In this document: positions 2,613 to 34,479 of the stretch, in pieces | Layout: every line of letters starts with the position of its first letter | How positions within the stretch are numbered: the first letter of the stretch is position 1 | NCBI GenBank assembly: GCA_017445025.1 | Contig: JAFSVJ010000028.1 | Coordinates: 30,707 to 94,706, forward strand | DNA from: Abditibacteriota bacterium | GTDB taxonomy: Bacteria > Armatimonadota > UBA5829 | Direction of reading: 5' to 3' | Length of the DNA stretch: 64,000 nucleotides | Program-made: the position numbers and the translations under genes | The notes under the pieces: generated by a model | What the model was told of the DNA's origin: nothing | The model's input: only the letters and a program-made list of their open reading frames with translations | The model's database searches: none

Positions 2613-2628
2613 TTTTTATCTCCTTATA

Positions 2629-3880: not shown

Positions 3881-4007
3881 AAAAAACATCTAACAATCTA
3901 CTTTTAAGAGTAATTAAGTGCCTAAACCATATATAGCCATATTTTCAAAATTGTATATTTCATAAAAATTTATCATATATGACTAATAACACTCTCTGTT
4001 TAGGATT

Positions 4008-4199
4008 CTATTTTTCCAATACCTTTTCTTTAAACTCTTGTGGTAAATCTAAGTATTCAAGAACAACAAAATCTATACCATCTACATTATCTACAATTAA
4101 GTCAACGGCTACTAAATCATCTTTCCCTTTAATCTTATGCTTAAACATTATAACGAGGACACTTAATTTTAACATAGCAGCTACAGGTAAATTATCCAT
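4008..4199 (-). CDS. small hypothetical protein (63 aa)
   Basis: ORF lying 11 nt downstream of the 64-aa ORF on the same strand. No recognisable motif. Confidence 0.3.
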   Translation of the reverse strand: MDNLPVAAMLKLSVLVIMFKHKIKGKDDLVAVDLIVDNVDGIDFVVLEYLDLPQEFKEKVLEK

Positions 4200-4210
4200 A
4201 GATAATTCAA

Positions 4211-4405
4211 TTAATTCTTGAAAAAAGATGCTCTGTCAAAACAGGTCTCTCCATACCCCTCTAACCCTATCATTCTTAAAATGTCACTATTCCATATTAG
4301 GGTTATTGTATCTATTTTGGCTTCGGCTCCTTTGGCAATAAATTTTACCAAATATTGTTTCGTTACGGAGATTATCTCCTTTTCATTTTCGTTTTTTGTT
4401 GACAT
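4211..4405 (-). CDS. small hypothetical protein (64 aa), paralog-like to 15070..15213
   Basis: Preceded by RBS GGAGGTGA. It sits immediately downstream (minus sense) of repeat R1. A C-terminal segment NSDILRMIGLEGYGE resembles VSDLFGSKVVELMGE in the 47-aa gene that follows repeat R2. Confidence 0.45.
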   Translation of the reverse strand: MSTKNENEKEIISVTKQYLVKFIAKGAEAKIDTITLIWNSDILRMIGLEGYGETCFDRASFFKN

Positions 4406-4435
4406 AGCGTCACCTCCGATTTAAATATTTTGGTT

Positions 4436-4545
4436 AAGGTTTTTCCCCTTCCATATATATATAGTCATATTTCCACCCAAAATTGCCATTTTTTCAAAAA
4501 ATTTTTTTTAAAAAAAGTGATACCATGTTTTCACATAGTATCACT
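4436..4545. repeat. ~110-bp direct repeat R1 (terminator hairpin plus putative promoter module); second copy at 15321..15446
   Basis: Shared core ccttccatatatatatagtcatatttccacccaaaattgccattttttcaaaaaa plus gataccatgttttcacatagtatc in both copies, with small indels. Confidence 0.8.
4508..4543 (-). terminator. putative rho-independent terminator for the island-1 operon (inside repeat R1)
   Basis: Minus strand reads gatactatg-tgaaaac-catggtatc, a 9-bp stem with one G-U pair, followed by a U-run. Confidence 0.4.
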
Positions 4546-4635
4546 AAATAAATCTTAAATATATGAATTGTAATTGGATGATAATTTTACAATCACAATT
4601 CACATAAAGGCTTAATTTTAATATTGATAAAAATC

Positions 4636-6228: not shown

Positions 6229-6245
6229 TTGTTTCTCCTTTTTAT

Positions 6246-9200: not shown

Positions 9201-9521
9201 TATAAAATCCTCATATTGGTCGTAAAACTCTTTTTTATCCAGAGCTTCAGAACAAAAGTTTTCTCTGACAGAAGAGAGAAATTTCTCAACGCCTTCACCG
9301 GAAATAGCCTTAACTATAATACTCTCGGAATTAAGGCCCACAAGTATTCTTAATTTAAGGTCATTCTTTTCAGCTTTGGCTTTTAGTTCTTGGTAGAGTT
9401 CCGGGATCGCGGAAAAATAGAAGTATCCCACCAAGAATTTCATTTCTGTAGATGTAGGAATTAAATCTTGAAATTTGGCTTTTAATGTGGTTGTGTCGTT
9501 ATTAATAATTAAGTTTGGCAT
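6246..9521 (-). CDS. fused phospholipase-D-family nuclease / SNF2-family (SF2) helicase
   Basis: N-terminal HKD motif NHSKLYLF...GSSNFTSAG. Helicase motifs: I (GDVVGLGKS), II (IIDEAHRFRN), III (LLTATPFNN) and VI (VIQRVGRMNRI). 1091 aa. Confidence 0.8.
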   Translation of the reverse strand: MPNLIINNDTTTLKAKFQDLIPTSTEMKFLVGYFYFSAIPELYQELKAKAEKNDLKLRILVGLNSESIIVKAISGEGVEKFLSSVRENFCSEALDKKEFYDQYEDFIKWIKEGKIIIRKTNKDNHSKLYLFAYPKDGKDNRFITGSSNFTSAGLFRQDEFNVEVNHAKDYIEADEYFENLWRDAILITEDDSIKKDIIEILTKETHCRKVTPYEAYIYILKTYLSLDMEDDKNIPQILDKAGFKPFRFQIDAIREALGKIEDYGGVILGDVVGLGKSIIASVIATQLPGNTLILCPPNLIGEPGSYGWKDYKYKFNIRGEVESSSFSNLKYIYERKLYSDFDNVIIDEAHRFRNDKNDTYGYLNTICKNKKVILLTATPFNNTFWDIHSILKLFLPTKFVSASYGYSLFEKFMDVKARIEDINSIIKDYRSTDPAKLAKIDRLLSKYLPGVKVASIGKPEIDKLHKMMKDVGGEVKDDISSYIIRRNRLDILNNPDYKKETGDLSTIEDPREALYFLEPDLSDFYDDILRYFSKTGGDFIGAIYRPVNYDAKNSVSKKLAKQYQDQLYDFMKRIIVKRLESSFGAFYESVKRYLQTNIEIYSFVTTNGYYVLNRKFMTDCVDLDDDEVLEKLKEMQAKKGKEYDVYEFTPSGEADFLEDIKKDIDLFTKIKERCEDLKMVDKDPKFEELVKIVDGIKAKEPNRKILVFTEFADTVKHLRNKFDGLHRDDIEYVYGSSIKIEEIEKEFDYSCKDQTNDKHILVSTDKMSEGHNLNRAGVVINYDIPWNPVRVIQRVGRMNRISAKVFDKLYIYNFFPSELTSDTVRVKQIATQKMLLIHNILGEDAKIFTPDEEPTAAELSEALHKLPYEDEEESFYTYVRKLYKSIEESTDPKVQEALKNIDKMPYRIKTCKLGTDNELILFILKNDMFVRHFNFDTSKSYVETKLNKDLIDKIKCDPDTPLETFSDNFWNMYPKLIDVNAGIRHSLPKKGDEEKAYNTLKSLEGIIKKDRYHSCAKYKDFIKALIDDITGLGTLSTFDYRKIKDWKDDDKLEAKITELYEDLGKSKYINSINRTEEKETKIIVGYENKKH

Positions 9522-9618
9522 TTTTTACCTCAAAACAATTAGTATACCCTAAAACTCGGAGAGTTTCTTGGAGGGGATTTTACCACTCTTTGTAAAATCA
9601 CAAAGAGGGGTAATATCA

Positions 9619-11460
9619 TTATATTTTTTTAAAAATCAAATTAACCAATTCTGTAGCTATTTCTTCCCCTCGCTCAGTTATATCTTTCCAAGTAGTAAAA
9701 GTAGTATAGCTTTCAGAATCAATTAAGGCATTTCTCTTGCTTGTTATTGGATCTTTATAAAATATCCTGGTATTTCCGATTTTATTTAAGCAAGAATCTT
9801 TAAAGTTTTTGTAAAGTTTATCCTTACACTCCTTAGGAAAATCACAACCGGATTTATAAACTGTTATACCATTATCATCATCTAAACCATCCATATAGTA
9901 TTGATATGAAGGATCAGAAGAACTTGGATTTTCGGGACATATATAATCTAAAATAAGCTCATCAAAATCTAAATCCAATAAATTATAAGCTTCTTTATAA
10001 TCAATGGTTCCTGATCCTTTTACGGATGCCATATAAAAAGCCAATAATATCATTGCCAACTTATTCTTATATGCATTCATATTTATAATTTCGGACAGAA
10101 CTGAACTATCAGGCAACTTGTTTATATAAGAATCTATTGTAGAAATTATATTAGTTATATTATAAGGTATGGTTTTATCAATCATATATCCCAATATATC
10201 TTTATACAAAGGAATTGAATCTTTACTGTCCCTATTGCAAACTGAAAGATATAAAAAAGAGTGTAGAATTACTTTTGAAACTGCATCTTCTACTTCCTTG
10301 GCAGTCAAAAAGGTTTCTTTATAATCATGCAAAAGTCTGAATATAAATGGCTTTGGATGTTTGTAGGAACCGTTTACAAATATTTTATAGAAAAATTTGA
10401 ATTTATCTCTGTTGATTAAGGTATATGTTTTATCTTCTGAGGTCAACATTTGATAAAACTCAACTTTATCATTTAAATCATCCAAGAATTTCTTCAAAGC
10501 TTCCGTTTCATCGCTTACACCATAATATTCTACCAATTCGTCTACAATCGTTTTTTTGAAATGACTTATTTTAATATTATTATTGTAAAACTTGATAAAA
10601 GCCTTTATATAAGTAGTTAAATAGTCATATAATTGGTCATTGGTTTTAATAATAAGATTTCCCCAAACAGACAAATAATGATGATGACTGGCTTCATCAA
10701 GTTTTGAGAAAATATAAGTCTTTATAAGATCTATATCTTCCAATTGTTTTCCTTTGGAATTAATTGATTCAAAGATAGAGAAAACTTTGGTTTGTTTGCA
10801 GTTGGAATCTATCACTATAAACCTAACAAAATTTAACAAATACTCGGCAAAAGCCAATAAATCATTAGAATCCGAAAATTCTTTTTTCAAATATTGATTT
10901 ATAAACTTAAAATTATCTATAACTCTTTTTTCAAAAGAATTGGCCGGGACAAATGATGAAATAAAATCGTCTATATTGGTGGGATCGTCAAATGCATAAT
11001 CAAATAATTGAGCAAAACAGGTTTTTTCTATACTGTTTAGGGAAATTAATCTTTGATCTTTGATATGTTTCCTGCCGACAACTTTCCATAAACAATTCTT
11101 CAATTTTACAATTGTTAAATCGCTTTCAGGTTCTCCGTTTTTTAATGCTCTTGTATATACTGACAAAAAAATCAAGGCAAAGGTGGTTATTCTTTGTTGA
11201 CCGTCTATAATATCATAAATGTTAATGTTTCCGTTAATTTTAGGTAAGGGAGTCTCATAAATTATAATATTACCGGTGTAATATCCTTCACTTCTTTCAT
11301 CAATATCGGTTAAATCAAAGACTTCTTTAATATCAATCAACAACTGATCAATATTTTCCTTATCCCAAGAATAAGGTCTTTGATACACAGGAACTGTGTA
11401 AGCTGACTTGAATAAATCTTCCAAGTCCATTGAAGCGGGGTCAAAAGTTTTTTTTGGCAT
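9619..11460 (-). CDS. DUF262 (ParB/Srx-like) + C-terminal DUF1524-like nuclease; GmrSD/BrxU/SspE-like type IV restriction-like enzyme
   Basis: N-terminal YQRPYSW and DGQQRITT motifs typical of DUF262. 613 aa with a C-terminal Cys/His-containing region. The start is 21 nt downstream of the MTase stop. Confidence 0.7.
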   Translation of the reverse strand: MPKKTFDPASMDLEDLFKSAYTVPVYQRPYSWDKENIDQLLIDIKEVFDLTDIDERSEGYYTGNIIIYETPLPKINGNINIYDIIDGQQRITTFALIFLSVYTRALKNGEPESDLTIVKLKNCLWKVVGRKHIKDQRLISLNSIEKTCFAQLFDYAFDDPTNIDDFISSFVPANSFEKRVIDNFKFINQYLKKEFSDSNDLLAFAEYLLNFVRFIVIDSNCKQTKVFSIFESINSKGKQLEDIDLIKTYIFSKLDEASHHHYLSVWGNLIIKTNDQLYDYLTTYIKAFIKFYNNNIKISHFKKTIVDELVEYYGVSDETEALKKFLDDLNDKVEFYQMLTSEDKTYTLINRDKFKFFYKIFVNGSYKHPKPFIFRLLHDYKETFLTAKEVEDAVSKVILHSFLYLSVCNRDSKDSIPLYKDILGYMIDKTIPYNITNIISTIDSYINKLPDSSVLSEIINMNAYKNKLAMILLAFYMASVKGSGTIDYKEAYNLLDLDFDELILDYICPENPSSSDPSYQYYMDGLDDDNGITVYKSGCDFPKECKDKLYKNFKDSCLNKIGNTRIFYKDPITSKRNALIDSESYTTFTTWKDITERGEEIATELVNLIFKKI

Positions 11461-11481
11461 ATTTGCCTCCTTAAAATTTAA

Positions 11482-14400
11482 TTATTTTTCAATTATTTTA
11501 ATTTCGTCATCAGTTAGATCATAAAGCTGATACACAAGGGTGTCGATTTCTTTTTCAAGGCTTGTGGTGTCCTTGCCTTGCTTTTTGCCCTCTGTAATTT
11601 GATCCACCAAATTCTCTATTTGATTGGCTATCTGCATGTTATCATCTTTTATTTCAGGAATAGGAAGTTTAATAACATCTTGAGTAAACCATCTTACAGC
11701 ATTTGTTCCTAATGAATTTCCATAATATGATATAAATGCATATCTTATTAATCTTGAATTTAATAAACCACAAATATATTTTACATTATTACCTGTAAGC
11801 ATATAACAAGTATTTAATAAATAATAACATTCATAATCATATATCATTTCTCCATCTGATATATCAGCCCATATAATTTTAGGTTTTTCATAATCTTTAT
11901 AATAATTTATTGTAGTTTGAGTTTCATACCATTTTCCAGAGGTTTTACTTCTTGCCTTAAAAGAACCATAATTTTTACCTGTCTGTTCAAGTCTTCTTTT
12001 ATCAAAATTATCTAAAAAGTATTTTTCAATTGTGGGATAATCTTTTATATTCAAATGTAAAGCCGGAAAAATTCCTATCACCCACAAATTAGCCCAATGA
12101 TATTCATATCTCTTTACATCTGAACCACGCAAGATGGGTTTAATTATTTTCTCCGTTCTCTGTCGTTCGGCAGATGTGGAACAGTTGTTTAAAATCTCGT
12201 CTTTGGTAGCTGTATCTATAATAAAAGCGTCATTAAAGCCGGTTTTAATACCATAATTAATGGTAATATCATCCCATTCTCCTAATGGTGTGCCTATATG
12301 CTCTATTTTTTTCTTTAGTGATACTTCTTCTCTTGATCCTATAAACCAACTGTCACTTGATAATTCTTTTAATATGACAGAATTATTGGTTATATAATCT
12401 CCCAAATTATCTTTAGGATTTTGACCTTTTCCCACCTTTAATGAACAAGCTTCAAGATCATAATGTATTTTTTCCTTTTTAATCAATAATATATTTGTAT
12501 CTACAGTTGCACTGTCAAAGACTCCGGGGCCTAAGTCTATCAACATCTTGGGGTTAAAATTGCAGAAATAGCCTCTTAACTTTTCACCATATCCGGCACG
12601 CATCCATTTGTTGGAGGTGATATAACATAAATTACCACCTGTCTTTAACAAATTCATTCCTTTTTCATAAAATAAACAATATATATCTCCACTACCATCA
12701 TGGGTTTCAAAACCTTGGGAAGCATATCGGTCTCTTAAATCTTTAGGTTTTATTTTTTGAAGTGGTATATAAGGCGGGTTTGCTATAACAATATCAAATC
12801 CTTCTTCAATACCAAACATCCATTTCGGATCAAACCAAGGGCAGGATTTGTTCTCAAAAGGATTCCAATCACATATAAACTGAATTCTTTCACTATCAGA
12901 ACCAATTTCTATGGCCTCATCTCTTATATTTTTTAATTTATATAAATACTCATCTTTTAATCTGTCTTTATCGTTTCCATGAGCATTTAAATAATCTTTT
13001 CTTATTTTTTGTAAATCTTTAATATCATTATCAAAATAACTATCGGAAAGATCTTTTGAGTCCGGTAAAGCAATTAAAGTATTGGCAGATACAAATTTAA
13101 AATCCAAATTAGGCAAAGGGAAAATATTTCTGTTTTCAACACCATCGTCTACTCTTTCATCTACAATTAAAGATAAAAAACATCTAAGCCTTGCAATATC
13201 CGTAGCCATGGTTTGTATATCCACACCATAAACAGAATTTCTGATAATTCCCAACTTATGTATATAACTTATGGCTTCTTGATTAAGTTTTGTTTCATAA
13301 GCCTCAAAAGCTTCCGTTAAAGTTGTTTTATCATGAGCCAGTATATAGTTTCTCCATAACTTTCCGTCGACATCCAATTTCCCTAAAATAAATAATATCT
13401 TCTGTAGCAGTCCCATAGGAAAGGCACCGGAACCACAAGCGGGATCAAGAATCTTAATATTGTATAAAGCTTCTGTTAATATTACTGTGACACATTGATC
13501 AAAAGGATTAGTCTCTTCATTAACGTCAAACAATTTATCTAACTTATCTTTATCTTTACAGAATTTATACAAATACTCCTTTAAACTCTCTTCACACATA
13601 TAATCCACTATTTCTCTAGGAGTATAAAAAGAACCGGAAGACTTTCTTGCATCTTCTTGGGTGACAGGATCTATAAATGCCAAAAGGTTTTCAAATATTT
13701 TACCCAACATTTCAGGGTCCACAGATATATCTGTATCGTTTACAGAGTTTTCATCTATAGTAAAATTAAATCTCCCGAATAAATCAAATAGTTTTATAAA
13801 CCATTGATTTGAAACTTTTAACACACCTGTGTTTGAATAATCACCTTTGTATTTATCTTCATCAATACATTGGAACAAACCACCGTTTAAATAAGGAACA
13901 AAATTAAAGTCATTTTGAGAAACAATATTATTATTTAATGTTTTATTATATTCTGTATAATCTCTTAAAGATTTGTTCTTATTAAGAACTTCAAAAAACA
14001 ATGTTTGTAGAACATAAGTATAGTATCCGCAATCGGAAGTCATTTTTTCAATAGTTTCAATACTTAAAATCTTATCCGGAATAATCTCCTTTCCTTGAAT
14101 TGATTTCTTTTGTTTCAAAAACCAACAGAATAAAATTCTTCCCAACAAACGAATTATAAATTTATTCTTATCTTCTTCCAATCCTTGATATTTCATCAAA
14201 GTCTTATCATTTTGTAAAGACAAATATAAGTCTTGAATTTCTTTATAAAATTCTTTTGTTACTTTTTCGATGGAGAAGGAGTCTGATAAGTCTTCAACCT
14301 TAAGCCACCTTTGATATTCTCCGGAAGAAGTCCGGTTTGCCACATATTTTTCAAAAGTCTTGTTGTTCTTAACAACCAATTCACCCTCATCATTTTCTTC

Positions 14401-14868
14401 CATTTGGAAAAAATGGGTTTGTCTGTTATACTTTGTAAACTCTACCTTTCCTTCACCGGGATAGATTTTTCTGACAAGGGACAGACGACAAGAAAGACTG
14501 TCGTTGTCATAAAAAGCCACCAAAGCAAAATCATAATCACTGCTTTTAATCAAATCCTTGATAATCTTAAACTGAAAAGATTTACTGCTTTTTTCCGTTA
14601 AGTTGTGGGACTTATCTTCACCTTTTTTTTCATTATACTCACTTACATAATCTTTATAATTGATTAAATAGCAAATAACATTATCGGAGCTGATTTTTCC
14701 ATATCCCAATTCTGTGATTGGACAACGGTTATCATCTGTAGTCTCCCTTGTTTTAGCTTCATCAATAATAGGATTGAATTTTCTTCTGATTAAGTCTGAT
14801 AAATAGGATTCTAATTTTGTTGGTGTTTTTGCCATTTTTAATTCTCTGTCATAATAATCGTTTAACAC
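11482..14868 (-). CDS. large gamma-class N6-adenine DNA methyltransferase (PglX / DrmMI / type IIG-IIL-like), 1128 aa
   Basis: Motif X GSFYTPREIVDYM, motif I ILDPACGSGAF, motif IV IANPPY. Long N- and C-terminal extensions, the C-terminal one TRD-like. Confidence 0.8.
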   Translation of the reverse strand: MLNDYYDRELKMAKTPTKLESYLSDLIRRKFNPIIDEAKTRETTDDNRCPITELGYGKISSDNVICYLINYKDYVSEYNEKKGEDKSHNLTEKSSKSFQFKIIKDLIKSSDYDFALVAFYDNDSLSCRLSLVRKIYPGEGKVEFTKYNRQTHFFQMEENDEGELVVKNNKTFEKYVANRTSSGEYQRWLKVEDLSDSFSIEKVTKEFYKEIQDLYLSLQNDKTLMKYQGLEEDKNKFIIRLLGRILFCWFLKQKKSIQGKEIIPDKILSIETIEKMTSDCGYYTYVLQTLFFEVLNKNKSLRDYTEYNKTLNNNIVSQNDFNFVPYLNGGLFQCIDEDKYKGDYSNTGVLKVSNQWFIKLFDLFGRFNFTIDENSVNDTDISVDPEMLGKIFENLLAFIDPVTQEDARKSSGSFYTPREIVDYMCEESLKEYLYKFCKDKDKLDKLFDVNEETNPFDQCVTVILTEALYNIKILDPACGSGAFPMGLLQKILFILGKLDVDGKLWRNYILAHDKTTLTEAFEAYETKLNQEAISYIHKLGIIRNSVYGVDIQTMATDIARLRCFLSLIVDERVDDGVENRNIFPLPNLDFKFVSANTLIALPDSKDLSDSYFDNDIKDLQKIRKDYLNAHGNDKDRLKDEYLYKLKNIRDEAIEIGSDSERIQFICDWNPFENKSCPWFDPKWMFGIEEGFDIVIANPPYIPLQKIKPKDLRDRYASQGFETHDGSGDIYCLFYEKGMNLLKTGGNLCYITSNKWMRAGYGEKLRGYFCNFNPKMLIDLGPGVFDSATVDTNILLIKKEKIHYDLEACSLKVGKGQNPKDNLGDYITNNSVILKELSSDSWFIGSREEVSLKKKIEHIGTPLGEWDDITINYGIKTGFNDAFIIDTATKDEILNNCSTSAERQRTEKIIKPILRGSDVKRYEYHWANLWVIGIFPALHLNIKDYPTIEKYFLDNFDKRRLEQTGKNYGSFKARSKTSGKWYETQTTINYYKDYEKPKIIWADISDGEMIYDYECYYLLNTCYMLTGNNVKYICGLLNSRLIRYAFISYYGNSLGTNAVRWFTQDVIKLPIPEIKDDNMQIANQIENLVDQITEGKKQGKDTTSLEKEIDTLVYQLYDLTDDEIKIIEK

Positions 14869-24766: not shown

Positions 24767-26617
24767 CTAATTTTCTTCCTTGTGAAAATACTCATAAACC
24801 TTCTGAGCCACGGGGGCGGTGATGCCGGGAGCTTCCCTCAGCTCTTCCACGGAGGCTTGTTTTATTTTATCCATGGATTTAAAATGACGCAGAAGGGCGG
24901 TGCGACGAGTTTTCCCCACCCCTTCTATTTTATTTAAGACAGATTGGCTCATAGTCTTGCCCCGAAGGTTTTTGTGATAGGTTATGGCAAATCTGTGAGC
25001 TTCATCCCTAATCCTTTGCAATATCATTAAGGCTTCACTTCGTCTTGGGAGAGCGATGGGGGTGCTATCATGGGGTTTAAAAATAAGCTCTTCTTTTTTG
25101 GCAAGACTTATGACGGGGACATTTATATTTAATTCTTCCAATATGGAAACAACGGAGGAGAGTTGCCCTTTACCGCCATCTATTACAAGGAGATCGGGCC
25201 ACTGCTCAAATTTATCCGTTTTGGAGAGAGAACCTGTAAACCGCCTTGTAATGGTCTCCTTCATGGATTTGAAATCGTCAGGCTTCCCTTCCGTGGTTTC
25301 CAGTTTAAATTTTCTGTAATAGTCCTTGGCAGGCTTACCACCTATGAAGGTGACAAGACTTGACACAGTGTTGGTTCCTTGAATGTTGGAGATGTCGTAG
25401 CATTCCATGCGGTAAGGGTAGATCTCGCTGTCTATGGCTTTTTGAAGGTCACCTAAAGCCTTTGACACTATTTCATTATCAAGAGAGGCTTTTTTGGTCA
25501 AATAGCTAACCTGCTCTAAAGAATTTTTTACACACAAATCAAGAAGCTTCCTCTTCTCACCTTTTTGGGGTATTATAACAGAAACCTTAAAGCCTCTTTT
25601 ACCTGAGAGCCATTCAGACAGGTTTGAAACGTCCTCCGGCATAATATTCACTATAATCTCTTTAGGGATATGAGAAACCATTTGATAATATGAGAGTAAA
25701 AATTCATACATAGATACAGACATATTGTCCGGATCTGTATTGTCAAGCTTAATTTGGTTTTGACCTACCACATAACCATCTCGGACATTGAGAACAAAGG
25801 CGAGAGAGGAGAAACCGTCTGTCACCAGGGCTACCACATCCTTATCGTCATAGGATTCCGAAACCACCTGCTGCTTGGAGACAAGACGCTTGACGGAGCT
25901 GATTTGATCTCGAAGCTTGGCAGCCTTCTCAAATTCCAGCTTTTCGGCACACTCTTCCATTCTGTGAGTTAGGGAAGCCAAAAGCTCCTTCCTGTTGCCT
26001 TCAAGGAATTTGATAACATCGGAAAGGGCGTTTTGGTAGTCGGTTTTGTCTGCCTTGTTGCAACAGACACCGAGACACTGGTTTATATGATAGTAGAGAC
26101 AGGGACGGCCCTTGCTCTTGGTGGGGTCCTTGTAACCGCAGGGGACCTTGAAAATCATACGAATGAGCTTGACGGTCTCCTTTACTGCCAAGGCGTCGGT
26201 GTAGGGGCCGAAATAGGTGTTCTTGTCATCCTTTTTGAAACGGAGCTTGCGAACAGACTTTATTTGAGGATATTCAGCGTCGGTGATGCAGATGTAGGGG
26301 TAGGACTTGTCGTCCTTGAGAAGGACATTGAAAGGGGGGGAGTATTTTTTTATGAGAGAGGACTCTAACATGAGGGCCTCCTGCTCACTGCCCGTCACCA
26401 CATAGTCAAAATCACGAACAAGGCCCACCATCTTCATAATACGGGGGCTTTTTTCAAATGAGGAGACGAAATAGGAGCGAACACGATTAGGCAAGACTTT
26501 CGCCTTGCCTACATATAAAACACTTCCCGCCTCATCCTTCATTATATAACAGCCGGAAGACTGAGGCAAAAGCTTTAATTTCTCTATAACATTTTTCGGA
26601 ACATAATCATAAAACAT
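24767..26617 (-). CDS. uvrC: excinuclease ABC subunit C
   Basis: N-terminal GIY-YIG (SGCYIMKDEAGSVLYVGKAKVLPNRVRSYF), a UvrBC-interaction region, and a C-terminal RNase H-like/HhH region. 616 aa. Confidence 0.9.
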   Translation of the reverse strand: MFYDYVPKNVIEKLKLLPQSSGCYIMKDEAGSVLYVGKAKVLPNRVRSYFVSSFEKSPRIMKMVGLVRDFDYVVTGSEQEALMLESSLIKKYSPPFNVLLKDDKSYPYICITDAEYPQIKSVRKLRFKKDDKNTYFGPYTDALAVKETVKLIRMIFKVPCGYKDPTKSKGRPCLYYHINQCLGVCCNKADKTDYQNALSDVIKFLEGNRKELLASLTHRMEECAEKLEFEKAAKLRDQISSVKRLVSKQQVVSESYDDKDVVALVTDGFSSLAFVLNVRDGYVVGQNQIKLDNTDPDNMSVSMYEFLLSYYQMVSHIPKEIIVNIMPEDVSNLSEWLSGKRGFKVSVIIPQKGEKRKLLDLCVKNSLEQVSYLTKKASLDNEIVSKALGDLQKAIDSEIYPYRMECYDISNIQGTNTVSSLVTFIGGKPAKDYYRKFKLETTEGKPDDFKSMKETITRRFTGSLSKTDKFEQWPDLLVIDGGKGQLSSVVSILEELNINVPVISLAKKEELIFKPHDSTPIALPRRSEALMILQRIRDEAHRFAITYHKNLRGKTMSQSVLNKIEGVGKTRRTALLRHFKSMDKIKQASVEELREAPGITAPVAQKVYEYFHKEEN

Positions 26618-26650: not shown

Positions 26651-26842
26651 TTATTTGACGGTATCTTCTGTGGTGATATGTTTATTATCTAATTCATCTA
26701 TAATATATTGTGCTTGTTTACACCCCAATTTCCCTAATCCTGTAGTTATAAGCAATAAGATAAGGACCACATACACAACCCCCATACAACAGGGCGGTTT
26801 CAGATTGTCTTCCGGCTCTGCGTTTAAATCATTGTAATCCAT
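26651..26842 (-). CDS. small predicted membrane protein (63 aa)
   Basis: A single strongly hydrophobic helix (VVYVVLILLLITTGLG). Weak call. Confidence 0.3.
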   Translation of the reverse strand: MDYNDLNAEPEDNLKPPCCMGVVYVVLILLLITTGLGKLGCKQAQYIIDELDNKHITTEDTVK

Positions 26843-26954: not shown

Positions 26955-28079
26955 TTATGAATTTAATAACTTAAGAATAGTTTCATCATAATTATCAGTA
27001 TAATTTTTTAATACTCTCAAAAATTCTTTAAAATCAGATATTTTTTCCATTTTGCTTATGGTTATCCAATCTAAATCTTTATATTTAGCTTGAAATAAAG
27101 TTTTACTGTTTTTAGGATTTTCAAAATCATATTTAATAATGCCTATACCAAAGGCATTATTTAATCTTTCCATTTCTTCTTGTAATTCTGGTTTATCATC
27201 AATTTCACTTGCAACCAAATATCCTTCATTTGCCCAACTTGAATTTGATACTGCTTGAAAATATGATTTCTTTAAATCCCCAAGAGTTAATGATTTCTTA
27301 AGTTCAAAAGAATAAATAGTGCAAGGAGCATTAGACATTTTTTTTACAAGATCTTGAGTTATATTCTCATATTTATGTGGTTTTACACCAACTATATCCG
27401 GATTCATCCATTCAAAATCCCCTTTTTTACCATTACTTTCTTGAATTCTTTTTCCATAAACATTAAATTTAACTTTTAAATACTCTATAAATGGCATGTA
27501 CATATCTTTTTCATCAAATTTCTTTTTTTCTATAATATGAAATTCTGCTTGTTTATTATCATTATTAAAATATCTTAATTTAAATTTAGCTTCATCAACT
27601 TTGACAAATTCAGAATTATCACCATTATTCTTAATATCTTCATATATAGGAGTTGATAAAGTATCTATAGGATTTTTACTTTTGGTATTTAGTTTTTTGT
27701 CATAACCTTTGTTAACACCGTAAGCCCAAATATCATTTATGTGTGTTGGCTCATTATTTAATTCGGTTAAAACTTCTATGGCAAAATCTTTAAATGTATA
27801 TTTGTTATTATTATAAAGAGGGTTTAGAGAGAATTTCCCTTTATCTATTTGAATAAATTCGGAGTTTTTTCCTTTCTTTTTTATATCTAAGTATAATTGG
27901 GCAGAAATAGTTGCTTCCGGAGTTTTACCGATATTTTTAAGTTTCTTGTGAAAATCCCGAAATACTCCTTGCTCCCAAATTTCCTTAGCAGTTAATATTT
28001 GATTTGAAGCTTTTAAAGTTTCTCTTGCAAAATCCTTGTAAGTATATGCCATTTTATAATCTCCTTTAAAATGTATCAA
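26955..28079 (-). CDS. tandem HARE-HTH domains + C-terminal PD-(D/E)xK-like nuclease domain (restriction-endonuclease-like), island 2
   Basis: Two repeats containing GKTPEATISAQLY / NPIDTLSTPIYEDI that resemble the HARE-HTH of RNAP delta and restriction enzymes. The C-terminal region has NPDIVGV ... YSFELKKS (PD ... ExK). The start overlaps the upstream gene stop by 14 nt. Confidence 0.55.
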   Translation of the reverse strand: MIHFKGDYKMAYTYKDFARETLKASNQILTAKEIWEQGVFRDFHKKLKNIGKTPEATISAQLYLDIKKKGKNSEFIQIDKGKFSLNPLYNNNKYTFKDFAIEVLTELNNEPTHINDIWAYGVNKGYDKKLNTKSKNPIDTLSTPIYEDIKNNGDNSEFVKVDEAKFKLRYFNNDNKQAEFHIIEKKKFDEKDMYMPFIEYLKVKFNVYGKRIQESNGKKGDFEWMNPDIVGVKPHKYENITQDLVKKMSNAPCTIYSFELKKSLTLGDLKKSYFQAVSNSSWANEGYLVASEIDDKPELQEEMERLNNAFGIGIIKYDFENPKNSKTLFQAKYKDLDWITISKMEKISDFKEFLRVLKNYTDNYDETILKLLNS

Positions 28080-31000
28080 AATTTATAATATTACTTTCAT
28101 CCTTTGGCTGGAATTTTTCTCTTATAAATTGTTTGATATTATCCGGTAAATTATATTTTTCCATTAGTTTTTCATTAATTTTATCGATTGATGAATCCCA
28201 CCAAATTTCTGAAAAATCTTGTCTCGGTATAGCTTGCCAACAAGAGGTGCTATGCTGATTCTTTTTATTTACATATAATAAAGCTCTAAAAAACTGAGTC
28301 ATAAAGTATTTAGCACATTTTTTGACAAGATCTATATCGTCAGAAGGGCACACTTCTAAGTAGGTTTCTAAACATGCTTCGTTGGGATAGGCAATAATAA
28401 TATCTGCAAATTGCCCTCCTAAATGTGTATGTTCTGACATATTCCCCCATGCATATGGAACATAGAGCTTATATTTATTAATATTTTCAATCTTAGGTTT
28501 CTCAGGGAACTTATAAGAGTCAGAAATATACTTTATTTGATTTTTAGGACCATATATTTTTATATTATATCCATTTTGCTTTTTATCTAGTAAATTATCT
28601 TTATAATTAGGTATGGATGAGAACTTTGTTCCTATTCCATATTGATTTCTGTTTGAAATAATATCTACACATTTATTACTTTTCTTTATGCTTTCAAAAC
28701 CATCAAAGTTAGAAATAATATTTGATAAATCTATTATTTCTTGAGGTTTTGAAACTTTGGATTCATATAATAATTTCTTTATATCGGGATTCTTACCTTC
28801 TGTAAATATCTTTTGTTTACCATCTAATTTATTATCAGATCCATATATCCAAAGTATTATATTTGTCCATTCTGCTCCTGCTACTCCAGTAAAGACATTA
28901 TGTCTATTATCTATACACTTAATTTGTTTATCTTCTTTTATTTCCGGTTTATTCATAAATTGAAGATTATTTTTATTTTTTGGTTCTTGCCAACCAACGG
29001 GGAATATTAAAGAGACATATTCCCCTAATATAATAGACTGCAAATAGAAAAATGGATATATTTGCATATGATGACCCATTTGATATGGTGGATTGCCTAC
29101 TATTGCTTCAAATTTCATACTTTTTTTTCCTTTAACTAAACTTGTATTCAAATCTATTTCATTAAATATCTTTTTTTGACATAGTAATTCTTTTACTTTG
29201 TCATAATCTATAGTTTCTTTTTTACCTTTATTCTTTTTTACTTTTAATAAATCGTAAGTATTAAATTTCTCTGCTATATTCTCTATTGGTAACCCCAAGC
29301 ATTCATAGACTTTTCTTGTAAATTCATAAGTTAATGAAGAGGTTGGTATTGAGTATATCATTTTTTTATATTTTTCCTTAGGTATGTTTAACTCTTCATA
29401 TTTTTCAACAATAGCAATAGCAAATTCACCTATTTTGGAAGCTATATCTAATATAGGATTTTTAAAATCATTTATAGGTAAATCTTTTATCATTTCTTTA
29501 CATATACTTTGGGGAGTGACAATTTCTGAAATGCCAAGCCTACTGAATTTAGTTAAAGCAACTTTTGCTCGTTCAATTGGGCTTAGACTGTCATCGTGAG
29601 ATAAGTTATTCATATTTCTTATTTTTTGATCTAAATCACGAATAATTATTGAATTTAATTTGGAATTTAGTTGTTCTAAATTTTCTTTCTTTAAATTAAT
29701 ATTTTTAGCGATTCTTTTATTATCACAAGTATCATCTATTTTAGATATTATATCACTTAAAGTTTTAACTTTACTTTTAGTTAAAAAAGCAAAGATTAAA
29801 ATTCTTGAATAATAAGCTCTGACTTTATCTTCAAAAGCGTCTTTTTCTTTTTTTGGAGGTTCCGCAGATGTGTCGCTTGTATCTCTTTTTTCTTTTGTTG
29901 AAGGGTCTATGTCTTTGCCTTCCCCTTCTCCTTCGTGTGCATTAAAGCTCAATCCTTCTTTAGAATTTAACCCTTTTTCTTTATTGATAAAATCCAAATC
30001 TTTTAATGAGGCATCTATACTAATTTCGTCAACTTCTTCTCTAATCCCCCTTTCCTTTGAGTATTTGCTAACATAATTCATAACATTATCCGGAGTAACT
30101 TTCTCGATTTTATCATTATTGATAACAAACATAGGGGAGAGATCAAAATCTTTTTCAATTCTTTTTTTAATATCACAATCTTTCTCATCTTTAACAACAT
30201 TATATACAAAAGCTTTTTGCTCTTGTAAAGTAAACATTCTATAAGGATTAAAATCTACTAACAGAGTTTGAGGCTTTTTATTATCTTTAATTATATTATT
30301 GTTTTTATCTATAAATATCTTAACATTTTGATTTTGTAATCTAAAAATAGCTTGGTCGTATTCTTGTGGTGAAGATGTATCCTTTAGAAAAATCATTGTG
30401 TCCCATTGTGGCACTGTTGAACCGGTTAACATTCTGTTAACCGTTAAGGTTAAAGTTTTTGAATCTTCTTTTGTTTTTATTTTATTTTTGATAGCATTTG
30501 TATTCTTATATTTATTATCTAAACCGGCAATATTTATAATTTCATAGTCTTTTAGCTTATTAAACTTGCATTTATTATTATTTAATAAATCTTCGAGAGC
30601 GTCACAAGAAGCCTTATATGGTAAAACACAGACTATGTGTTGACACATTTTCCCTTCTTTAATTGGATCATAATTTAAAAAACTAAAAATATTATCGTCA
30701 TCTTTAGAGCCATCTATAGCTTGAAAGAGTTCTAATACTTCTTTCTCAAATTTAAACTTTTTATATTCTCCTTTTTTATCTATACTTTCAGGTCTTAATA
30801 AATCGTTTAATGTTCCTAATTCACCTTTACTTTTTAATTCTTCCATTTTCTTTAAGGAAGATTCATTTGGATTAAAACCAAACCTAATCATTTCCGGGAA
30901 ACCGAAATAGGGATTATCCCATTCTTCTATATTATCTTTATTTAAATTTTTTTTATCCCATTCGTTTTTTGCTTCAATGATATCAGAATATTGATATTTT

Positions 31001-32058
31001 GCTATAATTTTTTCTTCTTCTTCAAATTCACTACTCATTAATATTCTGTAAGGAGTTCCGGATAAATGTAGTTTTATGCTACACTTTAATTTTTTATTTA
31101 TTATTTCTTTAGCTTCATTTGGATCAAAATAGTCTTCATCTTTTCCGGACGGTATTTTTTCACTATATTTTTCTGCACGTGCTCCAAAGTGAGTCTCATC
31201 AATTATCAACAGGTCAATGTTTTTTTCTAATAATTCTTTGTGCTTATCCTTTACATTTTCGCCTTGTAAATCTTGTAAAGTCAGAAAAATCACTACACGA
31301 TTTTTATCTTTCTTATTTAATACTTTTTTTATTTCACCATCTGACTTTTCTAAATCATGTGAAGTTAAAAATTCGTAATCGCTAAAATTTTCAGCACTTT
31401 GGACGGTTTTTCTCCATTCATCTTTAACATCTGCTTTTGCGGAAACAATAACAACTATTTTTGCACAAATAGCTTTTGCACAGCATAAAGCAGTAAAAGA
31501 TTTTCCAAATCGCATTACAGCATACATAAGTAGATTCGTTTTGTAATTAGATACTGCATCTATAAATTTTAGAACAGTCTCTTCTTGATTTGGTCTTAAA
31601 CTCCACGTTCCGGTAGATGCATATTTTGTTTTGATTTTTCCTTTATCTTTTAGGCTATATATATCATACGAATCAGAATTATCTTTTATATGTTGTATTG
31701 CTTTATCTATATCTTCTTCATTTACATTTTCAAAAAATTCATTAGAATAATAAGCTTCATGATTTATTTCTTCTAATTTTTTTTCGGTTAAACGTGTCTT
31801 ATCATTATTTTCTAAAAATTGATGAACAGAATAATCTCTAAAATATTTATCGTTATCTTTTAATACAGCACTGTGTTCAGATAATTTCTCAAGATTCGGG
31901 AATATATCTCTCCATTGCTTAAGTCTAACATTTACTCCTTGGGTTGTGTCACCGACTTTAGTATAATTGGGAATAGTCTCAGTTGTAAATGAATATATAT
32001 ATGGTTCTTTATATCCTGTTATAACTTCATCAATTTTAGTAGTATCAATTTTAGACAT
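28066..32058 (-). CDS. multidomain protein: GIY-YIG-like N-terminus + DExH SF2 helicase (type III res-like) + gamma-class N6-adenine MTase-like domain + C-terminal TRD-like region (Type ISP-like), 1330 aa
   Basis: N-terminus YIYSF...YTKVGDT...R, GIY-YIG-like. Helicase motifs I (RFGKSFTA), II (IIDETHFG) and III (LSGTP). MTase motif X (IVTPQSICKEMI), degenerate motif I (ILDIASKIGEF) and motif IV (IVGNPPYQ). Confidence 0.7.
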   Translation of the reverse strand: MSKIDTTKIDEVITGYKEPYIYSFTTETIPNYTKVGDTTQGVNVRLKQWRDIFPNLEKLSEHSAVLKDNDKYFRDYSVHQFLENNDKTRLTEKKLEEINHEAYYSNEFFENVNEEDIDKAIQHIKDNSDSYDIYSLKDKGKIKTKYASTGTWSLRPNQEETVLKFIDAVSNYKTNLLMYAVMRFGKSFTALCCAKAICAKIVVIVSAKADVKDEWRKTVQSAENFSDYEFLTSHDLEKSDGEIKKVLNKKDKNRVVIFLTLQDLQGENVKDKHKELLEKNIDLLIIDETHFGARAEKYSEKIPSGKDEDYFDPNEAKEIINKKLKCSIKLHLSGTPYRILMSSEFEEEEKIIAKYQYSDIIEAKNEWDKKNLNKDNIEEWDNPYFGFPEMIRFGFNPNESSLKKMEELKSKGELGTLNDLLRPESIDKKGEYKKFKFEKEVLELFQAIDGSKDDDNIFSFLNYDPIKEGKMCQHIVCVLPYKASCDALEDLLNNNKCKFNKLKDYEIINIAGLDNKYKNTNAIKNKIKTKEDSKTLTLTVNRMLTGSTVPQWDTMIFLKDTSSPQEYDQAIFRLQNQNVKIFIDKNNNIIKDNKKPQTLLVDFNPYRMFTLQEQKAFVYNVVKDEKDCDIKKRIEKDFDLSPMFVINNDKIEKVTPDNVMNYVSKYSKERGIREEVDEISIDASLKDLDFINKEKGLNSKEGLSFNAHEGEGEGKDIDPSTKEKRDTSDTSAEPPKKEKDAFEDKVRAYYSRILIFAFLTKSKVKTLSDIISKIDDTCDNKRIAKNINLKKENLEQLNSKLNSIIIRDLDQKIRNMNNLSHDDSLSPIERAKVALTKFSRLGISEIVTPQSICKEMIKDLPINDFKNPILDIASKIGEFAIAIVEKYEELNIPKEKYKKMIYSIPTSSLTYEFTRKVYECLGLPIENIAEKFNTYDLLKVKKNKGKKETIDYDKVKELLCQKKIFNEIDLNTSLVKGKKSMKFEAIVGNPPYQMGHHMQIYPFFYLQSIILGEYVSLIFPVGWQEPKNKNNLQFMNKPEIKEDKQIKCIDNRHNVFTGVAGAEWTNIILWIYGSDNKLDGKQKIFTEGKNPDIKKLLYESKVSKPQEIIDLSNIISNFDGFESIKKSNKCVDIISNRNQYGIGTKFSSIPNYKDNLLDKKQNGYNIKIYGPKNQIKYISDSYKFPEKPKIENINKYKLYVPYAWGNMSEHTHLGGQFADIIIAYPNEACLETYLEVCPSDDIDLVKKCAKYFMTQFFRALLYVNKKNQHSTSCWQAIPRQDFSEIWWDSSIDKINEKLMEKYNLPDNIKQFIREKFQPKDESNIINFDTF

Positions 32059-33124
32059 TATATTTTTCTCCTAATAATGATTTGAATGTAATAACATTTG
32101 GATTCCCTTTTTTTCCATTAGCGAACCAATCTTTGATATAACAATATTTAGGCTCTGTATCAAAGGGAGTTGTTAATTCTTTGTTTTTCTTTAAAAATTG
32201 CTTTTCTAAAAATTTATTATTATCTATTCTTTCTTTTTCAAACGGTGGCATAAAGGTTAAACCATCCATTTGCCATATATTCCATGCTATAATATTAGCA
32301 ATGGTTTTTATATATTGTAAATTCGGTATTTTGTTAAATTTATCAATATAATAATCTATAAAAGTAAATAATATATTTTCTCTTGCTAATAATAAATTAT
32401 CACCTTGATATTCATAACCATAGGTAGACCAAAAAGCTTTTATAGCCCAATTTACCCAATCTTTTTCTTCATTAGTGTTTTCACTTACAACTCTTAACTT
32501 CCTATCCAATAAACCAATTCTTTCTTTTATAGGTATTTGCTCACCGGTTACTGTGTCATATCTACTAACCAAATAAGGAGCTTCTCCACAGGTGATTTCA
32601 AGTCTTTTAGCCCTAACATAATCTTCCCAAGTCTTTTTTGTTTTTGAAAAGTTTATTTTATTTTCTGTAGCTTTCCAACCTTTATCACCAACAGGCACAT
32701 TAAACATATTTTCAACACCAAACCAATCATCATCAATAAGTTTATTTTGTTTATTACAAACCCAAGAAGGAGTAAATACTTCAGCCTTATCTTTTGTTCG
32801 TGCTTGTTGGTTGGATTTTTCTTTATCTATACGAGGTTGAATAATTAAACCGTTAATTGTTATACACTTGATAGTGATAGGACTTTTGGGGTCATAAGCA
32901 TCAGCATTTTCTAATAAATCTTTATATTGAATATAATTATCTGTAGCCCATATAATGTTTTTATTTTCAAAATTATATCTAACTTTAGACATATCAATTA
33001 ACAAAAGTTTCATAACCGACTCACCGAAAAAGTTAAGAATAAATTCTTCAGATATATCTCGTTTGGAACATTCACTTTTTAATATGTCTAATGTTAAGTT
33101 TTGTTTATATTTAATCTTTCCCAT
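32051..33124 (-). CDS. hypothetical protein (357 aa) with FTP ... CGEAPYL ... MPPF signature reminiscent of MTase motifs X / I / IV; first gene of island-2 operon
   Basis: AEVFTPSWV, LEITCGEAPYLV and LTFMPPF. Its stop overlaps the 1330-aa gene start by 8 nt. Confidence 0.45.
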   Translation of the reverse strand: MGKIKYKQNLTLDILKSECSKRDISEEFILNFFGESVMKLLLIDMSKVRYNFENKNIIWATDNYIQYKDLLENADAYDPKSPITIKCITINGLIIQPRIDKEKSNQQARTKDKAEVFTPSWVCNKQNKLIDDDWFGVENMFNVPVGDKGWKATENKINFSKTKKTWEDYVRAKRLEITCGEAPYLVSRYDTVTGEQIPIKERIGLLDRKLRVVSENTNEEKDWVNWAIKAFWSTYGYEYQGDNLLLARENILFTFIDYYIDKFNKIPNLQYIKTIANIIAWNIWQMDGLTFMPPFEKERIDNNKFLEKQFLKKNKELTTPFDTEPKYCYIKDWFANGKKGNPNVITFKSLLGEKYNV

Positions 33125-33289
33125 ATTGAATCTTATAAAAAATAGTTTCTTTTCTCACTTATATTATACCACAAAATTATATAAAAATACCAATATTAAT
33201 TATATATTTGTCACCAAAAAATAATATTCGGAGTTTTGGGACATATTTTGATTTTTTTTTAATATTGAAGGATTGTTATGGAATGGTTT

Positions 33290-33650
33290 CGGTGGTGTTG
33301 TTGGCTTAGATTGTTAGGCTTCTATCTCGCAAGCGAGTGAATACATAAATTTGCAATTCTATGCAAATTTATTCCTGACCACCCACCACAATCCAAATCC
33401 CTAAAAGTTTCGCACGGCCCCCCCACGGGAAAATCAAAGATTTTCCTCGTAGCCCCCCTAAAGGGGGTTCATTGATAGAAAAGCGAAACTTTTTGGGATT
33501 AGGGCAAGCAGTTGTCGTTTTTACAAAAAAGCGATGCTTTTTTGCCGCAATTCAACCTTGGATGAAAGGAATTTGCGGTTGCAAATTCAGTTCAAGGAGG
33601 GTGAGTGCCTACAATTCACCCCCAAACCTATGGTTTAGGGGAGAGAGAGA
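33290..33650. repeat. GC-rich mosaic interspersed repeat copy, related to 48230..48470 (inverted), 60170..60262, 34560..34680, 38380..38660 and 49268..49393
   Basis: tctatctcgcaagcgagtgaatacataaatttgcaattctatgcaaatttattcctgaccacccacc recurs as its reverse complement at 48393..48460. GC palindromes such as cccccaaacctatggtttagggg are present. Confidence 0.6.
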
Positions 33651-34479
33651 TTTTATCTATTTTCTTACAAATGTCTTCTATAATATAGTCCGGGGTGGAG
33701 GCACCGGCGGTTATGCCCACTGTGTCACAGTTTTCAAACATTTCTCCACTTATTTCTTCATCCGTTTCTATATGATAAGTGTGTGGATTCATTTCCTTGC
33801 AAATCTGAAACAGTCTGTTGGTATTGGCACTGTTCTTTCCACCAACCACCAGCATTACATCCACATTAGGTGCCAGATCGTGAGCTGCCGCTTGTCTTTT
33901 ATGAGTGGCATAACAAATTGTATTTGCCACAGTTATTTCATCAGCTATTTGTGCTATTTTACCCACCACTTCACCAAAATACTTTGGGCTGTTGGTGGTT
34001 TGGCTCACTATACCTAACTTTTTCTTTTTAAAATCATATTTATCAACGTCTTCAATGCTTGATATTACAATACAATCGTTATCCGCAGAAGACATTATAC
34101 CCTTAACTTCACTGTGGCCCGCATCACCAACTATTACTATTTTCAGCCCGGCTTTCTTATATTCAACCACTTTCTCATGGACTGCCTCCACAAAGGGGCA
34201 TGTGGCGTCAATAGCCTCAATACCTAAGTTCTCACACTTTTTGAAAAACTCCTTAGGCACACCATGGCTGGGCATTATTATTTTATCATAAAACTTATCT
34301 ATTTCGCTTGTGACCTCAACACCCTTTTCTTTCAAATCTTCCACAACTTGAGGATTATGAATAAGGGGGCCTAAGGTGGCTATTTTCTTGTCCTTATCTT
34401 TGGCATTAGATAGAACTATATCCATAGCTCGCTTTACACCAAAGCAGAAACCGGAATGTTCACTGATTTTGATTTTCAT
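33628..34479 (-). CDS. ispH: 4-hydroxy-3-methylbut-2-enyl diphosphate reductase
   Basis: GFCFGVKRAMDIV N-terminal motif, three conserved Cys regions, and LytB-like length (283 aa). Confidence 0.9.
   Translation of the reverse strand: MKIKISEHSGFCFGVKRAMDIVLSNAKDKDKKIATLGPLIHNPQVVEDLKEKGVEVTSEIDKFYDKIIMPSHGVPKEFFKKCENLGIEAIDATCPFVEAVHEKVVEYKKAGLKIVIVGDAGHSEVKGIMSSADNDCIVISSIEDVDKYDFKKKKLGIVSQTTNSPKYFGEVVGKIAQIADEITVANTICYATHKRQAAAHDLAPNVDVMLVVGGKNSANTNRLFQICKEMNPHTYHIETDEEISGEMFENCDTVGITAGASTPDYIIEDICKKIDKISLSPKP

Follow-up and report, generated by a model that had tools for sequence, protein, structure and literature searches.

What defense function is encoded by three adjacent minus-strand genes in an AT-rich island of ∼6 kb, and do these genes form one system? 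The island lies in a 64,000-nucleotide stretch (referred to below, at its full length, as the window) of contig JAFSVJ010000028.1 from an Abditibacteriota metagenome-assembled genome. A preliminary description, made from the sequence alone, had read the genes as one restriction-modification (RM)-like module outside the textbook Type I, II, III, and ISP systems. We find that the locus is a catalogued, uncharacterized variant of a Type ISP/IIG-like RM pair with an HrgA passenger. We estimate a probability of about 0.7 that the island consists of two independent defense modules, an ATP-dependent two-gene RM pair and a stand-alone HrgA nuclease, and the two were probably acquired together. Both the RM-like character of the locus and its place outside the textbook types are borne out by the analysis below, but not the grouping of all three genes into one system, as an HrgA homolog is present in 0 of 80 related loci (the best 80 of 509 species matches). 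The genes are the following.

32051..33124, minus strand: 357-aa 'restriction endonuclease subunit M' (MBQ7256615.1), the predicted N-terminal S-adenosylmethionine (SAM)-binding half of an Eco57I-type gamma-class N6-adenine (N6A)-methyltransferase
28066..32058, minus strand: 1330-aa single-polypeptide enzyme (MBQ7256614.1) with a predicted nuclease, superfamily 2 (SF2) motor, N6A-methyltransferase, and target-recognition domain (TRD)
26955..28052, minus strand: 365-aa HrgA/COG2958-family protein (MBQ7256613.1, NCBI 'HrgA protein')
26955-28079, minus strand: the third open reading frame (ORF) as first drawn, from a TTG start

The locus had been described as very AT-rich and placed between uvrC and ispH, and both statements are correct. 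The GC content of the island genes is 25.8%, 27.3%, and 27.5%, compared with 44% for uvrC (24767-26617), 39% for ispH (33628-34479), and 34% for the whole window, and the flanking products match UvrC and IspH/LytB in Pfam. The three ORFs and the 8-nucleotide (nt) overlap of the 357-aa gene with the 1330-aa gene (ATGTCTAA) also stand, but the 14-nt overlap reported for the third gene is an artifact of the TTG start. The junction of the large gene and the third gene reads TTT TAA AGGAG ATTATAAA ATG GCA, with the start at ATG 28052, an AAGGAG ahead of it that abuts the upstream stop, and a spacer of 13 nt. Starting at ATG 28052, the product is 365 aa long, the same as in the NCBI annotation, where all three proteins have named entries on a 161,952-bp contig.

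The 1330-aa protein is made up of the following regions.

31684..32010, minus strand: predicted T5orf172/GIY-YIG-clan nuclease domain (∼residues 17-125), with YIYSF, KVGDT, R45, and E107-FF
30199..31602, minus strand: SF2 (ResIII/Snf2-like) ATPase motor (∼residues 153-620), with GKS (Walker A), DETH, SGTP, TGSTV (motif V), and QAIFRLQ (motif VI)
28939..29541, minus strand: gamma-class N6A-methyltransferase domain (∼residues 840-1040), with EIVTP (motif X), LDIASKIGEF (motif I), and GNPPYQ (motif IV)
28339..28938, minus strand: hypervariable target-recognition region (∼residues 1041-1240), delimited by column identity
28066-28338, minus strand: conserved C-terminal helices

The helicase and N6-methyltransferase read in this protein by the preliminary description were both found by Pfam profiles: ResIII (E 3e-13) covers residues 153-338, Eco57I (E 1e-6) covers residues 901-1055, and Helicase_C matches weakly. 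The motifs that it had picked out (GKS, DETH, SGTP, VTP, the DIASKIGEF-type motif I, and NPPY) are invariant or nearly so when conservation is read over 25-46 homologs. In the motor, the family retains RFGKS, DETH, SGTP, TGSTV (motif V), and QEYDQAIFRLQ (motif VI). In the methyltransferase domain it retains (V/I)TP, D871-x-A873-x-K-x-G877-E-F, and GNPPYQ, and here columns D871, A873, and N989-Y992 are invariant and G877 is nearly so. Conserved N-terminal columns are I21, Y22, F24, K34, G36, D37, T38, R45, and W49, followed by F73, R74, D75, H79, S105, E107, F108, and F109; of these, the GIY-YIG-type residues Y22, G36, R45, and E107 are invariant. For 4 of 10 relatives, the full PF10544 (T5orf172) profile matches the aligned position above its gathering score (E ∼3e-7), and Pfam finds no PD-(D/E)xK match at the N terminus of the 1330-aa protein. 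The earlier assignment of this domain to the GIY-YIG nucleases holds by homology, as a predicted GIY-YIG/T5orf172 domain.

The region downstream of NPPY has the properties expected from its description as a TRD-like tail. Over residues 1-1000, column identity stays at 0.5-0.75; it drops to 0.20-0.29 at residues 1041-1200 (0.20-0.33 across the whole ∼1041-1240 variable block) and rises again at residues 1241-1320. Similarity within this block is uncorrelated with similarity over the rest of the protein (Spearman 0.07, 62 loci). Because the block is hypervariable and does not follow the core, it behaves as a swappable target-recognition domain.

This architecture is not an unknown one. The PADLOC model REase_MTase_IIG (PDLC03626), which is derived from REBASE, aligns with residues 5-1314 of the 1330-aa protein over profile positions 7-1354 of 1359 (1023 bits), and this end-to-end match indicates that the whole architecture belongs to an already catalogued REBASE-type family; the companion model for the 357-aa protein likewise fits from end to end, and homologs number in the thousands. 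Full-length homologs that are 43-48% identical to the large protein fall into at least 4,651 clusters (90% identity). Relatives turned up in 509 species when one genome was scanned for each, and the taxa include Bacillota, Bacteroidota, Pseudomonadota, Campylobacter, Spirochaetota, Lentisphaeria, and Veillonella.

In structural comparisons, the nearest fold to the 1330-aa protein among 48,164 PDB chains is the Type ISP enzyme LlaBIII, followed by the Snf2, EcoP15I Res, and SauUSI motors, and the methylase region of the model has the full beta1-beta7 strand pattern. The large protein and Type ISP enzymes (LlaGI, LlaBIII) each join a nuclease, an SF2 helicase-like ATPase, a gamma-class N6A-methylase, and a TRD in one chain, so the Type ISP domain order with a different N-terminal nuclease, as first described, is what we find. 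The nuclease of Type ISP enzymes is an Mrr-type PD-(D/E)xK domain, whereas the one in the window protein is predicted to be of the T5orf172/GIY-YIG type. In addition, Type ISP enzymes are self-contained, whereas the window family has a conserved second gene that encodes a predicted half-methylase. The large protein also differs from LlaGI and LlaBIII in lacking sequence homology to them: neither phmmer nor a hmmsearch with the family profile gave a match to either enzyme among all PDB chains (4xqk among them). Single-sequence and profile searches of PDB found nothing for any of the three island proteins, and NCBIfam gave no useful match.

Type IIG/IIL enzymes (Eco57I and the MmeI family) share with the large protein a methylase of the Eco57I type that includes NPPY, as well as a C-terminal TRD and the conserved terminal helices. 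Type IIG enzymes as catalogued in REBASE and PADLOC also carry nuclease, methylase, and TRD in one chain, and their models PDLC03626 and PDLC03390 fit both proteins. They cut at a fixed distance from the site and have no NTP-dependent motor. Unlike them, the window enzyme has an intact SF2 ATPase of ∼470 residues between nuclease and methylase, and its companion, unlike a Type IIG companion methylase, is predicted to lack the catalytic half. A third point of comparison is DnmA-YeeB-YeeC of Bacillus subtilis, a conserved cluster in low-GC defense islands that encodes an MmeI-like methylase, an SF2 helicase, and a T5orf172 protein (PMC9973331). It has the same three activities as the large protein, a likeness of domain content. 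It differs in that each activity resides in a protein of its own, with the genes ordered methylase, helicase, nuclease, whereas the window protein is a fusion in the order nuclease, helicase, methylase and is accompanied by an extra half-methylase gene. The Type ISP literature refers in passing to "related RM enzymes" that use GIY-YIG nucleases and have a helicase as a subunit or domain (PMC3553950), and our literature search found no characterization of a GIY-YIG Type ISP enzyme, of T5orf172 with Eco57I, or of a Type IIG enzyme with a helicase domain.

The 357-aa gene is tightly linked to the large gene. Of the 80 related loci, which come from many phyla, 73 have a homolog of the 357-aa protein beside the large gene by tblastn; for 6 of the 7 others, less than 1.1 kb of upstream DNA is covered. 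The spacing within the pair is -57 to +15 nt in nearly all of the 62 pairs in which both ORFs are intact, and the gene order is reversed in one close relative. The preliminary description had considered that the two smaller genes might be unrelated passengers; this is the case for the HrgA gene, and the 357-aa gene is an obligate partner.

This partner has no Pfam match. It fits the PADLOC model MTase_II (PDLC03390) from end to end (326 bits) and has more than 8,000 homologs, mostly of ∼319 aa. It consists of a helical domain, motif X (EVFTP), a motif I-like segment (LEITCGEAPYL), YGYE.QGD, and WNIWQMDG, and the family-invariant elements are EVFTPxWxCNxQNN, LEI(T/S)CGEAPYLxSRY, RIGxLDRK, YGYExQGD, ARxN, and WNxWQMDG. 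The FTP and CGEAPYL motifs noted previously are therefore invariant; MPPF, noted with them, is not conserved. Only its P294 is kept, which rules it out as catalytic motif IV, and no (D/N/S)PP(Y/F/W) is present in 92 of 102 short family representatives. The variable part is confined to the last ∼55 residues and is too small to be a TRD, and the similarity of the 357-aa proteins to one another follows the core of the partner (r 0.33) rather than the partner's TRD (r 0.01-0.02). An AlphaFold model (predicted template modeling score 0.82) shows partial likeness to gamma-class adenine methylases, with 100-177 residues aligned in each case to LlaBIII, CamA, HsdM, and PglX. When the small and large families were compared by hhalign, only motif X was aligned (probability 12%), so homology of the two SAM-binding halves is not demonstrated by this comparison.

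The nature of the 357-aa protein is made clearer by longer members of its family. An exhaustive search with the small-family profile gave matches that group at 50% identity into 2,369 clusters (E ≤ 1e-3), of which 848 have E ≤ 1e-30, and about one-third of the top 150 family representatives are long forms of 590-720 aa. In the long forms, WNxWQMDG is followed ∼70-90 residues on by KFDxVIGNPPYQ, a variable region, and the C-terminal helices LQDFT..IDW.KSI.EID.QLYKKYGL..EEI.FIE, which are the same as those of the large protein. In the large protein of the window, the homolog of this appended half lies at residues 938-1312 (E 6e-19), and the Pfam Eco57I match on long forms covers only ∼51-171 of the profile, i.e. 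from beta4/NPPY onward. As no other SAM-binding segment is present in these long forms, the 357-aa module must correspond to the N-terminal part of an Eco57I-type methylase, the SAM-binding half with motifs X and I-III. By sequence, the window's copy is predicted to be a half-methylase with no catalytic half, NPPY, or TRD, rather than a complete methylase with MPPF as its catalytic motif.

The gene next to the long form encodes a T5orf172-plus-helicase protein in 3 of 3 loci. This neighbor has its homologous counterpart in residues 19-633 of the large protein, with E 3e-29 by one-to-one BLASTP and E 2e-38 to 6e-5 when compared against the set of three window proteins. One complete long-form partner (1120 aa, locus L101) is without the NPPY/TRD half, and its C-terminal segment has a weak motif X/motif I-like match to residues 844-918 of the large protein (E 0.025). 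Two architectures are thus observed. In the one found in the window, the predicted half-methylase is paired with a protein that contains the predicted nuclease, the motor, a second SAM-binding-like segment, NPPY, and TRD. In the other, the half-methylase is joined to NPPY and TRD and is paired with a nuclease, motor, and second SAM-binding-like segment. Comparison of the two indicates that the NPPY/TRD half has moved between partner genes. A further protein (P0383, 1125 aa) has the small module fused directly to the helicase, and this Rosetta-stone fusion implies that both proteins act as a complex.

Members of both families are also found in phages and on plasmids. Fusobacterium phage FNU4 carries a lone long form beside its integrase, and the Tenacibaculum jumbo phages PTm1 and PTm5 each carry a short form that is 49% identical to the window protein. 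The module of PTm1 is placed as follows.

4137-6993 of PTm1 (L105, NC_049340.1): putative modification-only module, with a methylase/TRD portion, gp278 helix-turn-helix (HTH) protein, and gp279 half-methylase

The short form of PTm1 is gp279 (335 aa), and ahead of it are a small HTH gene (gp278) and gp277. The gp277 product begins MKFDIIVGNPPYQ and runs into the TRD, with a match to a long form at E 8e-62. Immediately upstream of gp277, unannotated and in another frame, lies TVTPEIV..LLDISAKQGEF..FYSVPTS, the counterpart of large-protein residues 847-907, and removal of one A from an A6 run (∼4405-4410) joins this segment to the gp277 frame. The run may reflect an error in sequencing, or it may act as a phase-variable switch. 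A reading of the PTm1 SAM-binding segment as decayed was dropped, since it is intact except for the one frameshift; being intact, it gives no argument that this segment is dispensable. No nuclease or motor is present in the PTm1 copy. As PTm1 has the methylase/TRD portion and the small protein without nuclease or motor, the needs of phage self-methylation would be met, and among the evidence available, this phage makes in our view the strongest case that the small protein belongs to the modification activity. The same gene pair is found on small mobilizable plasmids of Loigolactobacillus, Lactiplantibacillus, and Pediococcus and on large Enterococcus faecium plasmids, often beside a MazF/PemK toxin-antitoxin pair. 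The small partner is named inconsistently by PGAP, as 'restriction endonuclease' or 'hypothetical protein' on these plasmids and as 'subunit M' elsewhere.

Based on these comparisons, the first module probably works like a Type ISP enzyme. Type ISP enzymes use ATP to move along double-stranded DNA, cut where two of them collide head to head, and methylate a single strand; of the features behind this behavior, the large protein shows the intact ATPase motifs. In the mechanism that we propose, the 1330-aa polypeptide would recognize an asymmetric site through its variable TRD, and its NPPY domain would methylate adenine. On unmodified DNA, the SF2 motor would translocate the duplex, and the N-terminal T5orf172/GIY-YIG nuclease would cut. 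The 357-aa protein would take part in methylation as a subunit: it could form a pseudo-dimer with the methylase domain of the large protein, or it could provide a SAM-binding half in trans. The pseudo-dimer arrangement would resemble EcoP15I Mod2, in which one Mod subunit recognizes the site and the other methylates. A more specific form of the trans-acting arrangement is possible, although on balance we hold it to be doubtful: the methyltransferase would be split, with the 357-aa SAM-binding half (motifs X and I-III) supplied in trans to an NPPY/TRD half on the nuclease-motor chain and with self-protection dependent on both proteins. The NPPY/TRD half would have moved between partner genes, and residues 840-940 of the large protein would serve as a docking or coupling element and not as a working cofactor site.

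The third gene encodes a full-length member of the HrgA/COG2958 family, named for a restriction-endonuclease-replacing gene of Helicobacter pylori, with an HARE-HTH N terminus and the PD...ExK...QAVSNSSW pattern of that family. Two HARE-HTH units and a PD...ExK signature had been noted in it at the outset, and both are evident: HARE-HTH matches in Pfam at E 4e-23 in two stretches, and the invariant C-terminal residues W224, P227, D228, E259, and K261, with FQAVSNSSWxxEGYLV, make up a PD-(D/E)xK signature. The domains are placed as follows.

∼27825-28043 and ∼27585-27800, minus strand: the two HARE-HTH units of HrgA
∼27045-27512, minus strand: PD-(D/E)xK nuclease domain of HrgA

There are 6,104 HrgA/COG2958 homologs. 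Most differ from the window protein in having one HARE-HTH unit: a typical member has ∼310 aa and covers ∼71% of the query, and a minority of 390-445 aa has two units. The HrgA protein has no match in PADLOC, NCBIfam, or PDB, and the literature search found no biochemical activity for the family. It probably reads DNA, perhaps its modification state, through the two HARE-HTH units and would cut through the PD-(D/E)xK domain; HARE-HTH domains have been proposed to read modified bases (PMC4738411; PMC11037411), and they occur fused to endonucleases of N6A-modifying RM systems (PMC4738411).

A same-strand gene lies close behind the large gene in 39 of the 80 related loci. These downstream genes belong to many unrelated families, among them SMODS/DncV-like with SLATT (CBASS), GmrSD_N, KAP NTPase, AAA_15/AAA_21, RES, RelA_SpoT, and DUF3644. 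Unrelated defense genes are packed tightly into the slot 3' of the large gene, which is a hot spot for them, and they often start -3 to +40 nt from the large-gene stop. The closest homolog of the window's HrgA (50% identity) is solitary, among housekeeping genes; of the others, one lies within an EcoRI-methylase/DNA_methylase fusion locus and one in a toxin-antitoxin island. Stand-alone modules packed behind others are usual in defense islands, and the simplest reading of the HrgA gene is that it is such a nuclease module placed behind the pair. Functional dependence between HrgA and the pair is not supported.

The alternative that all three genes form one integrated system, in which the HARE-HTH/PD-(D/E)xK protein would be the nuclease or a modification reader used with the helicase-methylase and the small M protein, is unlikely. 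It would account for the co-orientation of the genes, for the Shine-Dalgarno sequence placed over the upstream stop with no terminator between the genes, for the equal low GC of all three, for the published link of prokaryotic HARE-HTH fusions with endonucleases that serve N6A-modifying RM systems (PMC4738411), and for the one sampled HrgA homolog in a methylase locus. It is at odds with the absence of HrgA from the related loci, where the downstream slot is taken by many unrelated defense genes, with the solitary position of the closest homolog, and with the presence in the large protein of a conserved nuclease domain of its own. It is also improbable, and somewhat more so, that the 357-aa protein acts by itself as a full DNA methyltransferase and modifies the other strand of an asymmetric site, in the way that M.Eco57I does beside the bifunctional Eco57I. 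It lacks a conserved catalytic motif IV, MPPF being a chance local match; no variable region large enough for a TRD is present, and its sequence varies independently of the TRD of the partner. The long relatives need an appended NPPY/TRD half, on which the Eco57I match spans only ∼51-171 of the profile. These points outweigh the match to the PADLOC 'Type II methyltransferase' model and the NCBI name 'restriction endonuclease subunit M', and PGAP also labels homologs 'restriction endonuclease', so the names are no evidence. The invariance of motif X and of the motif I-like segment, and gamma-class methylases as the nearest fold, do speak for a methylase, and the many invariant polar residues imply an active or ligand-binding site. 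An equally poor prospect is that the module provides no active restriction in its host and is instead an epigenetic or relic locus, as has been proposed for DnmA-YeeB-YeeC, a cluster with the same three domain types that methylates without restriction or phage protection in B. subtilis (PMC9973331). A Vibrio homolog of that cluster, however, protects against phage (PMC9973331). In the window protein, the nuclease, motor, and methylase catalytic motifs are all intact and family-invariant, and the ORFs are full length; the family has members on plasmids of dairy and gut bacteria as well as in defense islands, and the shuffling of its TRD points to diversifying selection on specificity.

Several observations weigh against the reading that we prefer, an active Type ISP-like pair followed by an independent HrgA nuclease. 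The linkage of HrgA to the pair is tight, with the 13-nt spacer, the Shine-Dalgarno sequence over the upstream stop, no terminator, and identical GC; the spacer, the lack of a terminator, and the GC make co-transcription with the pair likely, and HARE-HTH nucleases have been reported with N6A-methylase systems (PMC4738411), so HrgA and the pair may be functionally coupled at this locus. The N terminus of the window's large protein itself scores below every Pfam threshold, T5orf172 included. Its motif I (DIASKIGEF) is without the first glycine, so SAM binding is not assured, and its methylase fold is already seemingly complete, which leaves the need for a small subunit unexplained. The methylase gene of PTm1 has a frameshift in its A6 run. 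B. subtilis DnmA-YeeB-YeeC methylates DNA and gives no restriction or phage defense, and its Vibrio crassostreae homolog protects against some phages (PMC9973331). The literature search found no measured activity for any member of the window family.

To our knowledge, ATP-dependent single-polypeptide restriction enzymes are understood from just two close relatives, LlaGI and LlaBIII. The family described here is far more widespread, with relatives in 509 species, thousands of protein clusters, plasmids of dairy and gut bacteria, and phages. Compared with LlaGI and LlaBIII, its nuclease appears to be of another type and a conserved half-methylase subunit has been added, and in the literature searched it figures only under database labels ('Type IIG', 'subunit M', and 'restriction endonuclease'), which are partly misleading. 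Most worth experiment are the half-methylase partner and the movement of the NPPY/TRD half between genes. If the small protein is required for the methylase or acts in trans within it, this would be a new coupling of modification to restriction and would explain carriage by phages. The locus also carries a warning for annotation, as three adjacent, co-directional genes in a defense islet need not be one system.

Upstream of the first gene of the island is one candidate regulatory element.

33163-33171, in the region 33125..33230, minus strand: putative promoter with an extended -10 element, TGGTATAAT, 39 nt before the ATG of the first gene

This pattern was read from the sequence; a consensus scan of the AT-rich DNA for promoters and terminators was uninformative, with fewer matches than in shuffled sequence. 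No direct repeats or target-site duplication were found flanking the island, only chance AT-rich matches. In the higher-GC spacer between ispH and the island is a 21-nt inverted repeat (33393-33413 and 33483-33503) that is 90% complementary, with 69 nt between its arms, and this is probably the repeat element mentioned in the preliminary description. On the other side, the interval that separates uvrC from the HrgA gene contains an ORF (26651-26842, minus strand) whose predicted 63-aa product has a hydrophobic segment and no match in Pfam.

A separate low-GC (28-32%) defense island is located at 901-14868 on the minus strand of the window, with the following genes.

11482-14868, minus strand: 1128-aa Type IIG/DrmMI/PglX-like methylase (PADLOC, 1e-170)
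9619-11460, minus strand: 613-aa DUF262/GmrSD-like protein (HEC-06/dnd Orf5/SspE N terminus, 1e-34)
6246-9521, minus strand: 1091-aa HKD(PLD)+SNF2 helicase (DrmD/BrxH-like, 1e-34)
901-2181, minus strand: weak match to an endonuclease effector

From its gene content, this second island looks like a DISARM-like system or a PLD-SNF2 plus Type IIG-methylase system.

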